Origin: Escherichia coli | Lineage (GTDB): Bacteria > Pseudomonadota > Gammaproteobacteria > Enterobacterales > Enterobacteriaceae | Assembly: GCF_003334385.1 (NCBI RefSeq) | Contig: NZ_QOWN01000042.1 | DNA: 38,068 nt | Reading direction: 5' to 3' (one strand) | In this document: positions 25,732 through 36,164 of the stretch, in pieces | Layout: every line of letters starts with the position of its first letter | Position numbering within the stretch: the stretch's first letter is position 1 | Translations under genes and position numbers: made by a program | The notes under the pieces: model-generated | The model's database searches: none | Told to the model about the DNA's origin: nothing | What the model saw: the letters and a program-made list of their open reading frames with translations, nothing else

Positions 25732-28700
25732 ATGATTACTATTGACGGTAATGGCGCGGTTGCTTCGGTCGCATTTCGCACCAGTGAAGTTATCGCCATC
25801 TACCCTATTACCCCCAGTTCCACGATGGCAGAACAGGCTGATGCCTGGGCCGGAAACGGCTTAAAGAACGTTTGGGGAGACACACCACGCGTGGTTGAAA
25901 TGCAGTCGGAAGCGGGTGCTATCGCTACCGTGCATGGCGCTTTGCAGACGGGTGCCCTTTCAACATCGTTTACGTCATCGCAGGGTTTGCTGCTGATGAT
26001 CCCGACGCTGTACAAACTGGCAGGCGAACTAACACCGTTTGTCCTGCATGTAGCGGCACGTACCGTTGCCACACATGCACTCTCTATTTTTGGCGATCAT
26101 TCCGACGTTATGGCGGTGCGCCAGACGGGTTGCGCGATGTTGTGTGCAGCAAACGTCCAGGAAGCGCAAGACTTTGCTCTCATTTCGCAAATCGCGACGC
26201 TGAAAAGCCGCGTGCCATTTATTCATTTCTTTGATGGTTTCCGCACGTCCCACGAAATCAATAAAATTGTCCCGCTGGCCGATGACACGATTCTTGATCT
26301 CATGCCGCAGGTCGAAATTGATGCTCATCGCGCCCGGGCACTCAACCCGGAACATCCGGTGATCCGCGGTACGTCCGCCAATCCTGACACTTATTTCCAG
26401 TCTCGCGAAGCCACCAACCCATGGTACAACGCGGTCTATGACCATGTTGAACAGGCGATGAATGATTTCTCTGCCGCGACAGGTCGTCAGTATCAGCCGT
26501 TTGAATATTACGGGCATCCGCAAGCGGAACGGGTGATTATCCTGATGGGCTCTGCCATTGGCACCTGTGAAGAAGTGGTTGATGAATTGCTAACCCGTGG
26601 CGAAAAAGTTGGCGTGCTGAAAGTTCGCCTGTACCGCCCCTTCTCCGCTAAACATTTACTGCAAGCTCTGCCGGGATCCGTACGCAGCGTGGCGGTACTG
26701 GACAGAACCAAAGAACCCGGTGCCCAGGCAGAACCGCTCTATCTGGATGTAATGACCGCACTGGCAGAAGCCTTTAATAATGGCGAGCGCGAAACTCTGC
26801 CCCGTGTCATTGGTGGGCGCTATGGTCTTTCATCCAAAGAATTTGGCCCAGACTGTGTACTGGCGGTATTTGCCGAGCTCAACGCGGCTAAACCGAAAGC
26901 GCGCTTTACGGTTGGTATTTACGATGATGTGACCAATCTGTCACTGCCGTTGCCGGAAAACACCCTGCCAAACTCGGCGAAACTGGAAGCCTTGTTTTAT
27001 GGCCTTGGTAGTGATGGCAGCGTTTCCGCGACCAAAAACAATATCAAGATTATCGGTAATTCCACGCCGTGGTACGCACAGGGCTATTTTGTTTACGACT
27101 CCAAAAAGGCGGGCGGCCTGACGGTTTCTCACCTTCGAGTGAGCGAACAGCCGATTCGTTCCGCTTATCTCATTTCCCAGGCTGATTTTGTTGGCTGCCA
27201 CCAGTTGCAGTTTATCGATAAATATCAGATGGCTGAGCGTTTAAAACCTGGCGGCATTTTCCTGCTCAACACGCCGTACAGCGCAGATGAAGTGTGGTCG
27301 CGCTTGCCGCAAGAAGTTCAGGCCGTGTTAAACCAGAAAAAAGCGCGCTTCTATGTGATTAACGCGGCGAAAATCGCCCGCGAATGTGGCCTGGCGGCCC
27401 GTATTAATACCGTCATGCAGATGGCTTTTTTCCATCTGACGCAAATTCTGCCTGGCGATAGCGCCCTCGCAGAATTGCAGGGTGCGATTGCCAAAAGTTA
27501 CAGTAGCAAAGGCCAGGATCTGGTGGAACGCAACTGGCAGGCTCTGGCGCTGGCGCGTGAATCCGTAGAAGAAGTTCCGTTGCAACCGGTAAATCCGCAC
27601 AGCGCCAATCGACCGCCAGTGGTTTCCGATGCCGCCCCTGATTTCGTGAAAACCGTAACCGCTGCGATGCTCGCCGGGCTTGGTGACGCCCTCCCCGTTT
27701 CGGCGCTGCCGCCAGACGGCACCTGGCCGATGGGCACTACGCGCTGGGAAAAACGCAATATCGCCGAAGAGATCCCCATCTGGAAAGAGGAACTCTGTAC
27801 CCAATGTAACCACTGCGTTGCCGCTTGCCCACACTCAGCTATTCGCGCAAAAGTGGTGCCGCCTGAAGCGATGGAAAACGCCCCTGCCAGCCTGCATTCG
27901 CTGGATGTGAAATCGCGTGATATGCGCGGGCAGAAATATGTCTTGCAGGTGGCACCGGAAGATTGCACCGGTTGTAACCTGTGCGTCGAAGTTTGCCCGG
28001 CGAAAGACCGTCAGAATCCAGAGATTAAAGCCATCAATATGATGTCTCGCCTGGAACATGTCGAAGAAGAGAAAATCAATTACGATTTCTTCCTCAACCT
28101 GCCAGAAATCGACCGTAGCAAACTGGAACGTATTGATATTCGTACATCGCAGCTGATTACACCGCTGTTTGAATATTCAGGTGCTTGCTCCGGTTGTGGC
28201 GAGACGCCGTATATTAAATTACTGACTCAGCTCTATGGCGACCGGATGTTGATCGCTAACGCCACTGGCTGTTCTTCAATTTATGGCGGTAACCTGCCCT
28301 CTACACCGTATACCACCGATGCCAACGGTCGTGGGCCGGCATGGGCGAACTCTCTATTTGAAGATAATGCCGAATTTGGCCTTGGTTTCCGCCTGACGGT
28401 CGATCAACACCGTGTCCGCGTGCTGCGTCTGCTGGATCAATTTGCCGATAAAATCCCGGCGGAATTACTGACGGCGTTGAAATCAGACGCCACGCCAGAG
28501 GTTCGTCGTGAACAGGTTGCAGCTTTACGCCAGCAACTCAACGATGTTGCCGAAGCACATGAACTGCTACGTGATGCAGATGCACTGGTGGAAAAATCAA
28601 TCTGGCTGATTGGTGGTGATGGCTGGGCTTACGATATCGGCTTTGGCGGTCTGGATCATGTATTGAGTTTGACGGAAAACGTCAACATTCTGGTGCTGGA

Positions 28701-29256
28701 TACGCAATGCTATTCCAACACCGGTGGTCAGGCGTCGAAAGCGACACCGCTGGGTGCAGTAACTAAATTTGGCGAGCACGGCAAACGTAAAGCGCGTAAA
28801 GATCTTGGCGTCAGTATGATGATGTACGGTCATGTTTATGTGGCGCAGATTTCTCTCGGCGCGCAGCTGAACCAGACGGTGAAAGCGATTCAGGAAGCGG
28901 AAGCGTATCCGGGGCCATCGCTGATCATTGCTTATAGCCCGTGTGAAGAGCATGGTTACGATCTGGCACTCAGCCACGACCAGATGCGCCAACTCACAGC
29001 TACCGGCTTCTGGCCGCTATATCGCTTTGATCCGCGTCGTGCCGATGAAGGCAAACTGCCGCTGGCCTTGGATTCACGCCCGCCGTCAGAAGCACTGGAA
29101 GAAACGTTACTTCACGAGCAACGTTTCCGTCGGCTGAATTCGCAGCAGCCAGAAGTGGCAGAACAGTTATGGAAAGATGCTGCAGCTGATTTGCAAAAAC
29201 GCTATGACTTCCTGGCACAAATGGCCGGAAAAGCGGAAAAAAGCAACACCGATTAA
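25732..29256 (+). CDS. ydbK: Pyruvate:ferredoxin/flavodoxin oxidoreductase (single-polypeptide PFOR with two 4Fe-4S ferredoxin motifs and TPP domain)
   Basis: 1174-aa ORF; CxxCxxCxxxCP motifs (CTQCNHCVAACP, CTGCNLCVEVCP) and C-terminal TPP-binding region. Confidence 0.9.
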   Translation: MITIDGNGAVASVAFRTSEVIAIYPITPSSTMAEQADAWAGNGLKNVWGDTPRVVEMQSEAGAIATVHGALQTGALSTSFTSSQGLLLMIPTLYKLAGELTPFVLHVAARTVATHALSIFGDHSDVMAVRQTGCAMLCAANVQEAQDFALISQIATLKSRVPFIHFFDGFRTSHEINKIVPLADDTILDLMPQVEIDAHRARALNPEHPVIRGTSANPDTYFQSREATNPWYNAVYDHVEQAMNDFSAATGRQYQPFEYYGHPQAERVIILMGSAIGTCEEVVDELLTRGEKVGVLKVRLYRPFSAKHLLQALPGSVRSVAVLDRTKEPGAQAEPLYLDVMTALAEAFNNGERETLPRVIGGRYGLSSKEFGPDCVLAVFAELNAAKPKARFTVGIYDDVTNLSLPLPENTLPNSAKLEALFYGLGSDGSVSATKNNIKIIGNSTPWYAQGYFVYDSKKAGGLTVSHLRVSEQPIRSAYLISQADFVGCHQLQFIDKYQMAERLKPGGIFLLNTPYSADEVWSRLPQEVQAVLNQKKARFYVINAAKIARECGLAARINTVMQMAFFHLTQILPGDSALAELQGAIAKSYSSKGQDLVERNWQALALARESVEEVPLQPVNPHSANRPPVVSDAAPDFVKTVTAAMLAGLGDALPVSALPPDGTWPMGTTRWEKRNIAEEIPIWKEELCTQCNHCVAACPHSAIRAKVVPPEAMENAPASLHSLDVKSRDMRGQKYVLQVAPEDCTGCNLCVEVCPAKDRQNPEIKAINMMSRLEHVEEEKINYDFFLNLPEIDRSKLERIDIRTSQLITPLFEYSGACSGCGETPYIKLLTQLYGDRMLIANATGCSSIYGGNLPSTPYTTDANGRGPAWANSLFEDNAEFGLGFRLTVDQHRVRVLRLLDQFADKIPAELLTALKSDATPEVRREQVAALRQQLNDVAEAHELLRDADALVEKSIWLIGGDGWAYDIGFGGLDHVLSLTENVNILVLDTQCYSNTGGQASKATPLGAVTKFGEHGKRKARKDLGVSMMMYGHVYVAQISLGAQLNQTVKAIQEAEAYPGPSLIIAYSPCEEHGYDLALSHDQMRQLTATGFWPLYRFDPRRADEGKLPLALDSRPPSEALEETLLHEQRFRRLNSQQPEVAEQLWKDAAADLQKRYDFLAQMAGKAEKSNTD

Positions 29257-29284
29257 ATGCTCTGGATAAGGATTATCCAATTCT

Positions 29285-29316
29285 AAAAAAAAAAGCCCGG
29301 ACGACTGTTCGGGCTT
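29285..29316. terminator. Bidirectional intrinsic terminator shared by ydbK (+) and micC (−): A-run, agcccgg/ccgggct hairpin, T-run
   Basis: Hairpin with flanking A10 and T5 runs read directly. Confidence 0.75.
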
Positions 29317-29396
29317 GTCTTTTTATATGTTGGAAAATCAGTGGCAATGCAATGGCCCAACAGAAAATAAAATCTGTGACAATAAAGGCATATAAC
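29287..29396 (-). ncRNA. micC: MicC small regulatory RNA (Hfq-dependent repressor of ompC translation)
   Basis: Minus strand reads GTTATATGCCTTTATTGTCACAGATTTTATTTTCTGTTGGGCCATTGCATTGCCACTGATTTTCCAACATATAAAAAGACAAGCCCGAACAGTCGTCCGGGCTTTTTTTTT, matching the MicC sequence as I recall it; located between ydbK and ompN as described for micC. Confidence 0.85.
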
Positions 29397-29623
29397 CCGC
29401 GCAGAATAACGTATAGCAAATTAAAAGTATAATTTTTATTTTGTATGTATTATCTTCGATACATTCACCAGACTTATTATCATTTCAGAGGAATTATTTG
29501 ATTAAGGTTTTACTTAAGGCGTAACAAATGATATTTATCGGCTAACTGAACTTCTCCTTTAGGATGTTTTCACTCCCCGAAATGGGGATAAAAGGCAAAT
29601 AAAATAACTAAAGGATTTATTCA

Positions 29624-30757
29624 ATGAAAAGCAAAGTACTGGCACTTTTAATTCCTGCCCTGCTCGCCGCAGGTGCTGCACATGCAGCCGAAGTTTATAA
29701 TAAAGACGGCAACAAATTAGATCTGTATGGCAAAGTTGATGGCCTGCATTATTTTTCTGATAATTCAGCGAAAGATGGCGACCAGAGCTATGCGCGTCTG
29801 GGTTTTAAAGGCGAAACCCAAATTAACGATCAACTCACTGGCTACGGTCAATGGGAATACAATATTCAGGCAAACAACACTGAATCTTCAAAAAACCAGT
29901 CATGGACCCGTCTGGCATTTGCCGGGCTGAAATTTGCAGATTACGGTTCTTTCGATTACGGACGTAATTATGGCGTAATGTACGACATCGAAGGCTGGAC
30001 CGATATGCTGCCTGAATTTGGCGGTGACTCTTATACCAATGCAGACAACTTTATGACTGGTCGAGCCAATGGCGTCGCGACTTATCGTAATACTGATTTC
30101 TTCGGTCTGGTAAATGGTCTGAACTTCGCGGTGCAGTATCAAGGTAACAACGAAGGAGCCAGTAATGGTCAGGAAGGCACCAACAACGGACGTGATGTTC
30201 GCCATGAAAACGGTGACGGCTGGGGTCTTTCCACAACATATGATTTAGGCATGGGCTTTAGCGCTGGTGCGGCATACACCTCTTCTGACCGCACCAATGA
30301 CCAGGTTAACCATACTGCGGCGGGTGGTGATAAAGCAGACGCGTGGACTGCTGGGCTAAAATACGATGCTAACAATATTTACCTGGCAACCATGTATTCA
30401 GAAACGCGTAATATGACCCCGTTTGGCGACAGCGATTATGCTGTGGCAAACAAAACCCAGAATTTTGAAGTCACTGCACAGTACCAGTTTGATTTTGGTC
30501 TGCGTCCGGCAGTCTCTTTCCTGATGTCTAAAGGCCGTGACCTGCACGCTGCGGGTGGTGCAGACAACCCGGCAGGTGTTGATGATAAAGATCTGGTTAA
30601 ATACGCCGATATTGGCGCGACTTACTATTTCAATAAAAACATGTCCACCTACGTTGACTATAAAATCAACCTGTTGGATGAAGATGACAGCTTCTACGCT
30701 GCCAATGGCATCTCTACCGATGATATTGTCGCTTTAGGTCTGGTTTATCAGTTCTAA
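29624..30757 (+). CDS. ompN: Outer membrane porin N (OmpC/OmpF-family general porin)
   Basis: 377-aa ORF with signal peptide ([21 protein letters not shown]) and C-terminal ...LVYQF beta-barrel signature. Confidence 0.9.
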
Positions 30758-30816: not shown

Positions 30817-31332
<516 letters not shown>

Positions 31333-35579: not shown

Positions 35580-36164
35580 TTACTCCCTGACAGGGTTCGT
35601 AGGCCACTCAATATCAGGTGCAGTTGATGTATCAACACGGTTCAGCAACACCCGATACTTTTTCCAGGCTTCCAGCAACAAGGTTTCTTCCTCCGTTGCG
35701 ATTTCCAGATCTGCAGCATCCTGAAGCGGCGCAATATGCTCACTGGCTACCTGCATCAGGCTGTTTTTTGTTTCTTCCGCCTCCCGGATCCGGAACAGTT
35801 TTTCTGCTTCTGCATCTTTCACCCAGGCTGTGCCGTTCCACTTCTGAAACTCCCCTTCCGGGGATAACCAGGTAACATTTTCCGGTAACGGACCGAGTTC
35901 AGAAATAAATAACGCGTCGCCGGAAGCCACGTCATAGACGGTTTTTCCCCGATGATCTTCAACGAGATGCCACGATGCCTCATCACTGTTGAAAACAGCC
36001 ACGAAGCCTGCCGGAATATCTGGTGGTGCAATATCGGTACTGTTTGCTGGCAGACCTGTATGAGGCGGAATATATGCATCACCTTCACCAATAAATTCAT
36101 TAGTTCCGGCCAGCAGATTATAAATTTTTATGGTCCGTGCTTGTTCACTCATTCTGAATGCCAT
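35580..36164 (-). CDS. tfa: Phage tail fibre assembly (chaperone) protein, Tfa family (TfaR-like)
   Basis: 194-aa [27 protein letters not shown]..., closely resembling lambdoid Tfa proteins as I recall them; ATG overlaps the stf stop (TAATG). Confidence 0.8.

Follow-up and report, generated by a model that had tools for sequence, protein, structure and literature searches.

How the two transcripts that converge between ydbK (nifJ) and the porin gene ompN come to their ends is the question raised by this locus of Escherichia coli, here examined within a window of 38,068 nucleotides (the whole stretch of DNA analysed). The small RNA gene micC is read towards ydbK, and one GC-rich hairpin lies at the place where both are predicted to finish. 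Whether ydbK transcription stops at this hairpin or reads through it decides whether SoxS-induced transcription yields an RNA antisense to MicC and adds to the expression of ompN. The matter is of modest weight; it touches on porin remodelling and on how permeable clinical E. coli are to beta-lactams, as well as on the methyl viologen resistance to which MicC is reported to contribute in ExPEC (bioRxiv 10.64898/2026.07.27.741068). The elements concerned are the following.

25732..29256, + strand: ydbK/nifJ coding sequence, 1174 aa, convergent with micC, TAA stop at 29254-29256 (K-12 b1378).
29293..29316, both strands: terminator hairpin AAGCCCGGAC-GACT-GTTCGGGCTT, a + strand terminator-like site (inverted repeat I1).
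29285..29396, - strand: micC, encoding the MicC sRNA, 112 nt if the full T10 run is transcribed (Rfam RF00121 and K-12 b4427).
29624..30757, + strand: ompN coding sequence, a porin of 377 aa, divergent from micC (K-12 b1377).

The initial annotation of this DNA had recognized MicC in the minus-strand sequence 29396..29287 and proposed an alignment to the corresponding Rfam family. When the whole 38-kb window was scanned against Rfam (cmscan), two matches exceeded the gathering score, MicC and IS009. The former (RF00121) extends over 29399..29279 (-) with 122.2 bits and an E value of 4.8e-19, covers model positions 1-123 of 123, clears the curated gathering score of 90 bits, and was recovered again upon scanning the sub-region alone. 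The latter (RF02111) is a separate full-length match at 35623-35821 (-), with 226.9 bits and an E value of 9e-56. Window positions 29250-29640, which include the start of ompN, the spacer, micC and the end of ydbK, are identical base for base to K-12 MG1655 bar one T, the poly-T run after the hairpin having 10 T in the window versus 9 in that strain. The K-12 gene set over the same interval consists of ompN (b1377), micC (b4427) and ydbK (b1378), and its micC annotation (ncRNA, 1437121-1437231) maps to window 29396..29285. Thus, the earlier identification is upheld by the covariance-model match, by the identity to K-12 and by the complementarity to ompC presented below; its 5' end at 29396 is also correct, while its 3' end at 29287 falls 2 nt away from the annotated one at 29285. 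The size of MicC in K-12 has been published as 109-111 nt (109 nt in PMC5745476).

Both neighbours were identified as well. The ORF at 25732-29256 (+) is a pyruvate:ferredoxin (flavodoxin) oxidoreductase (TIGR02176, 1628.9 bits versus a cut-off of 911, NCBIfam), named nifJ in RefSeq, and that at 29624-30757 (+) is an OmpC-subfamily porin (593.8 bits, NCBIfam), 'porin OmpN' in RefSeq. Of 5426 complete E. coli genomes, 5415 have a match to window 29000-29900, and the annotated genes that it covers are nifJ and ompN. A 48-aa ORF overlapping micC (29273..29419, - strand) was discarded as a gene, because it would start from a TTG located before the first nucleotide of MicC. There is no evidence against the MicC identity, and window 29285-29396 (-) can be taken with high confidence as the known E. 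coli micC, placed between ydbK/nifJ and ompN as in K-12. As a regulator of porins, MicC is an sRNA found in textbooks, and the locus agrees with the K-12 reference; the feature was already known, and its identification here adds no new biology.

Two parts of the RNA precede its terminator.

29375..29396, - strand: MicC 5' seed, nt 1-22, of which nt 1-16 are complementary to the ompC leader at -30..-15.
29328..29362, - strand: MicC central stem-loop, nt 35-69, with the Rfam helix GUUGGG/UCCAAC.

The 5' end is single-stranded, and its nt 1-16 (GUUAUAUGCCUUUAUU) form 16 contiguous Watson-Crick pairs with positions -30..-15 of the K-12 ompC leader, this being the leader employed throughout, as the window does not extend to the ompC gene of its own strain. 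The duplex of the first 30 nt of MicC with this leader reaches -26.5 kcal/mol (RNAduplex), while shuffled seeds give -13.2 +/- 2.5 kcal/mol and none among 500 attains the observed energy. MicC is described to repress OmpC by pairing with the ompC 5' UTR and to be transcribed opposite to ompN (PMC5745476), and a discrete Hfq-dependent transcript of ~109 nt that represses OmpC was reported in K-12 (Chen et al. 2004, in the summary given by PMC5745476). Because the sequence is identical to that of K-12, the same Hfq-dependent, OmpC-repressing transcript is assumed for the MicC of the window.

Orthologues were collected by searching with a 20-nt seed pattern in one genome per species, which provided 31 loci. 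They comprise 30 true micC loci, from Escherichia, Citrobacter, Salmonella, Superficieibacter, Pseudocitrobacter and a MAG labelled as Raoultella, and one chance match, a Clostridiales MAG with the 20-nt pattern and neither MicC body nor terminator, which was left out. The seed is unchanged in all 30, but these loci were retrieved with the seed itself as search pattern. The nifJ gene is convergent in 27 of the 30, at 14-33 nt, and a divergent ompN was detected in 14, at 223-228 nt. Among 26 distinct orthologues, the central helix has 86% of its cells paired with compensatory changes at 2 of 7 pairs, and the whole MicC structure is 93.7% paired, versus ~31-51% for slid-partner controls. The covariation score, for which the two MicC helices were counted jointly, lies above that of all 500 shuffles.

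Between the micC 5' end and the ompN ATG there are 227 bp (29397-29623) with a GC content of 30.4%, within the lowest 0.8% of the 227-bp windows of a stretch that has 50.6% GC overall. Candidate elements within it are listed here.

29403..29408, - strand: TATTCT, likely -10 hexamer of micC, at -12..-7 from the annotated 5' end, near-invariant in 22 loci of five genera.
29427..29442, - strand: conserved block AAAATAAAAATTATAC, at ~-46..-31 of micC, near-invariant in the 22 aligned loci.
29456..29483, + strand: TCGATA-16-TATCAT, candidate sigma-70 promoter of ompN, 9/12 matches in the consensus scan.
29535..29561, - strand: sigma-28 (FliA)-type motif TAAAGGAG-N11-GCCGATAA, pointing to micC, ~130 nt upstream of its 5' end.
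29574..29588, + strand: short hairpin UCCCC-GAAAU-GGGGA, 36-50 nt before the ompN ATG, in what is presumably the leader.

Conservation of the spacer over the 22 aligned loci is unusually strong for intergenic DNA. In addition to the putative -10 hexamer, the AAAATAAAAATTATAC block is kept across five genera, even in Salmonella, which has unrelated DNA beyond it; its position is one where the -35 region, an UP-like element or a regulator site may lie. Further conserved blocks are TGTTAC, TTAAGTAAAA, AATAATTC, GTGAATG and CTAAAGGAGAAGTTC. The sigma-70 consensus scan returned no site for micC. A good -35 hexamer is absent, which would fit a weak, regulated micC promoter. On the ompN side, the TCGATA-16-TATCAT candidate is weak, as the count of sigma-70 sites does not exceed the shuffled expectation, and the start site of ompN is known from prediction (Dam et al. 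2017, PMC5745476).

Published reporter work provides functional support for promoters in both directions. Dam, Pages and Masi (2017, PMC5745476) worked with two cloned fragments, a micC promoter piece of 184 nt and the entire spacer of 227 nt, which equals window 29397-29623 in length and was fused to lacZ in both orientations. Beta-lactams and RseA overexpression induced micC-lacZ and ompN-lacZ alike, and an hns mutation derepressed them ~11-fold and ~6-fold, respectively. Conditions inducing RpoS, OmpR, MarA or SoxRS had no significant effect on either fusion, an ompR null mutation slightly raised micC-lacZ, and the sigma-E core motif was not found by these authors in the micC-ompN spacer (PMC5745476). 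The view of an AT-rich tract with divergent promoters, as well as that of micC and ompN being co-regulated, had been put forward in the initial annotation; the base composition, the conserved blocks, the activity in both orientations and the shared response to beta-lactams, RseA overexpression and hns inactivation all agree with it, and its estimate of ~230 bp becomes 227 bp exactly.

The sigma-28-type motif is an exact match to TAAAG-N14-GCCGATAA, for which the chance expectation at one mismatch or fewer is 0.09 per window, and its location agrees with an RpoF genomic-SELEX peak recorded for the ompN<>micC spacer (PMC5493296). In the 22-locus alignment the exact GCCGATAA occurs solely in E. 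coli-like loci, and the FliA ChIP-seq paper does not name the motif in its main text.

Regarding the short hairpin at 29574-29588, it could be a stem-loop of the ompN 5' UTR. Its arms change together between genera (ACTCCC/GGGAGT versus ACTTCC/GGAAGT), with a weak RNAalifold consensus of -0.87 kcal/mol and one pair present as CG in 11 sequences and UA in 4. Downstream of it, the ompN leader (29590-29623) is paralogous to the K-12 ompC leader, ATAAAA-GCAAATAAA being common to both. Nonetheless, ompN should, by its sequence features, escape MicC, because its leader does not have the GGCATAT core of the MicC site and the predicted duplex amounts to merely -14.6 kcal/mol, versus the value given above for ompC.

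Some variation among strains was observed at and around the locus. Strain USMARC-51688 of E. coli carries an IS1 element within micC (junctions at 841 and 1609 of locus L035), with a 9-bp target duplication corresponding to window 29333-29341 (MicC nt 56-64), and it parts seed and promoter from the terminator. IS1 lies between nifJ and ompN in 9 of the best 15 genome matches, and a query made of the IS1 junction recovered at most ~29 of the 5426 genomes, an imprecise figure given that BLAST pieces were joined across gaps. Downstream of ompN (~30898-31332, and from 31918 onward), the closest genome, SCU-104, has a frameshifted uspF pseudogene followed by sitA and sitB; as sitABCD is absent from this position in K-12, the window, which carries it downstream of uspF, comes from a non-K-12 lineage.

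The 3' end of MicC was then considered in both senses of transcription. In the MicC RNA the hairpin reads GACAAGCCCGAAC-AGUC-GUCCGGGC and is followed by U10, that is, a stem GCCCG.AC/GU.CGGGC with a tail of 10 U, and the same design is present in the 30 orthologues with 7-10 U. With its GCCCG stem and subsequent U-tract, which make up the Hfq-binding 3' module, it constitutes a strong Rho-independent terminator for MicC. On the + strand it is flanked by A10 at 29285-29294 on the left and by TTGTCTTTTTAT on the right, and it forms the centre of a larger imperfect inverted repeat, with 19-nt arms of 84% complementarity (TAAAAAAAAAAGCCCGGAC / GTTCGGGCTTGTCTTTTTA, 29284-29302 with 29307-29325) that takes in the A10 run and the TTGTCTTTTT run. 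Such a repeat corresponds to the A-run on one side and T-run on the other that had been described for this hairpin beforehand. On the contrary, the perfect stem agcccgg/ccgggct described together with them does not stand, since the eighth pair is G.U in the RNA of the + (ydbK) sense and an A.C mismatch in MicC.

The GC-rich hairpin forms in RNA of both senses, in folds that agree with the energies of the 20-nt core; at -13.3 kcal/mol for the ydbK sense and -9.3 kcal/mol for the micC sense, the former is the more stable, and the + sense fold has a z-score of -3.6. The consensus scan likewise calls a + strand terminator-like site, with 10 pairs and the tail GTCTTTTTAT. The tails rank in the opposite order. 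That of the micC sense scores 5.9 (U10) versus 3.24 for the ydbK sense (UUGUCUUUUUAU), in which the U-tract is broken right after the stem (UUGUCUUUUU; UUGUC...) and has 7 U in 10 nt. When stem and tail are combined in a d score, the micC sense reaches 35.2 and the ydbK sense 6.3, just over a nominal threshold of zero that is itself approximate, as a formula of the d'Aubenton-Carafa 1990 type was applied with modern energy parameters. Sub-threshold Rfam matches to the Thr, Leu, Phe and Trp leaders on both strands of the hairpin reflect the shape of a terminator and were dismissed as attenuators.

One further small symmetric element, read from the sequence, lies nearby.

29265..29279, both strands: inverted repeat GGATAA-GGA-TTATCC, between the ydbK stop and the MicC 3' end.

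Its two 6-bp arms persist in Escherichia orthologues, where the 3 nt between them vary; in Citrobacter the position is occupied by GTTAA-nnn-TTAAC.

From the point of view of ydbK, the hairpin lies 36 nt downstream of the stop codon, and the predicted 3' ends of ydbK and micC, the latter at 29285, overlap by ~41 nt around one stem-loop. The 30 orthologous loci show clearly different behaviours for the two senses. In the micC sense the d score is 23-59 in all of them. In the ydbK sense it is 0-13 solely in Escherichia loci (with TTGTCTTTTT, or TTGTCTTCTT in L030), and it drops to between -2.8 and -24.6 in those of Citrobacter, Salmonella, Superficieibacter and Pseudocitrobacter (TTGTCAATTTAT and similar). 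The T-run of the + strand is equally confined to Escherichia among the 30, and the two-sided design is not kept wherever nifJ stays convergent. Because the ydbK-sense score is negative outside Escherichia despite a convergent nifJ, a two-sided terminator is not a conserved requirement, and it would represent at most an Escherichia-specific refinement. In a Citrobacter MAG an extra GC-rich hairpin occurs just downstream of micC, and nifJ was undetected in that locus.

Two features of the terminator region are specific to Escherichia. Across 26 orthologues the terminator stem is invariant except at the position of the A.C mismatch (window 29300), which appears only in the window/K-12-type sequence and in L030. 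Upstream of the MicC stem the Escherichia loci have AAAAAG (AAGAAG in L030), read on the + strand as CTTTTT (CTTCTT) at window 29317-29326. Both the A.C/G.U position and the CTTTTT run would favour function of the hairpin and of its U-tract in the ydbK direction.

Published 3'-end data sets were consulted as well. The Term-seq supplements of Adams et al. (2021) contain nothing for ydbK or micC, the only + strand 3' end being 1436165, classed as antisense to ompN; the TERMITe supplements are without entries for either gene; and a text search of the literature for a bidirectional terminator together with micC or ydbK found nothing relevant.

Considering these features, a bidirectional terminator shared with ydbK, as proposed in the initial annotation, is plausible at the level of the sequence. 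Its two-sided shape is confirmed by the inverted repeat and by the + strand site, while the interrupted U-tract, a d score of about 6 facing one of about 35, a T-run confined to Escherichia and the reported ydbK-ompN operon weaken the proposal. The stability of the + sense hairpin together with 7 U in 10 nt makes some ydbK termination likely, and we infer that in Escherichia part of the ydbK transcripts probably end at the hairpin.

The main competing view is that the hairpin serves MicC alone, with ydbK transcription running on in antisense to micC, through the spacer and into ompN, so that ydbK and ompN form a SoxS-driven operon, and with any ydbK 3' ends near the hairpin arising from processing or stabilisation. 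It is favoured by the description of ydbK and ompN as 'coexpressed in an operon' under SoxS (Fabrega et al. 2012, as cited in PMC6176095), since such co-transcription demands that polymerase coming from ydbK continue beyond the hairpin and run through micC in the antisense direction, as well as by a ydbK-sense score that is marginal here and negative in the other genera. Nevertheless, paraquat did not induce ompN-lacZ, although that fusion is devoid of the ydbK promoter (PMC5745476). The hairpin energies and the uridines that follow the stem in the ydbK RNA also speak against free passage. This view appears possible, with a probability somewhat short of even; leaky termination and operon read-through are compatible.

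Head-on collision of RNA polymerases at the hairpin, as in the model of Ju et al. (2019), might alternatively end both ydbK and micC, in place of hairpin-plus-U-tract release in each direction. A collision-driven model of bidirectional termination that needs a stem-loop has been described (bioRxiv 10.1101/2022.10.23.513370), and the convergent arrangement, with predicted 3' ends overlapping around one stem-loop, is of the kind it calls for. Yet in the micC sense the hairpin and its 10 U form an intrinsic terminator of the textbook kind, for which no collision is needed, and standard conditions give weak expression of the two genes, with MicC undetected in some growth phases and the spacer silenced by H-NS, so that collisions should be rare. 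Thus, we consider this explanation very improbable. A bolder extension of partial termination is that the micC terminator of Escherichia has been retuned to serve the opposite strand, SoxS-driven ydbK transcription either stopping within micC or reading through it, in such a way that antisense RNA or collisions could modulate MicC and feed ompN. This is suggested by the fact that the A.C mismatch weakens the MicC stem only, being G.U in the ydbK RNA, and that AAAAAG makes the T-run of ydbK; we regard it as an unlikely scenario, which, if true, would couple oxidative stress to the OmpC/OmpN porin switch.

Returning to the preferred reading, that of the known micC gene with a terminator that may also stop part of the ydbK transcripts, the locus can be described as follows. 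The micC gene is transcribed divergently from ompN, a quiescent porin gene, out of a spacer that carries a probably weak micC promoter and an ompN promoter and that, according to the published reporter work, is silenced by H-NS and co-induced under beta-lactam stress. The 5' end of MicC would pair with the ompC leader and repress OmpC; because micC shares the H-NS-silenced spacer with ompN, the stress that turns on OmpN would also lower OmpC. At the other end of the gene, the hairpin, with its A-run and its interrupted T-run, seems palindromic enough to act as a weak and leaky ydbK terminator in addition to finishing MicC.

Several known systems help to place this arrangement. Its closest relatives in terms of termination are the bidirectional intrinsic terminators between convergent genes defined by SEnd-seq (Ju, Li and Liu 2019), with which the locus shares one GC-rich stem-loop, flanking A-run and T-run, and overlapping predicted 3' ends. 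It differs from that class in having a canonical U-tract on the micC side only, the ydbK side being marginal and not conserved beyond Escherichia. Regarding promoter organization, micC-ompN resembles micF-ompC, an analogy drawn in PMC5745476, as in both cases an AT-rich, H-NS-bound spacer separates an sRNA gene from a divergent porin gene and the sRNA represses another, major porin; unlike micF/ompC, micC/ompN is unresponsive to OmpR-, SoxS- and MarA-inducing conditions (PMC5745476). The two divergent porin genes themselves have paralogous leaders, of which that of ompN is distinguished by being without the GGCATAT core for MicC. Finally, the MicC of E. coli K-12 (b4427; RF00121) has the same flanking genes, ompN spacer, ompC-complementary 5' end and terminator, and the MicC of the window differs from it just in poly-U length, 10 versus 9.
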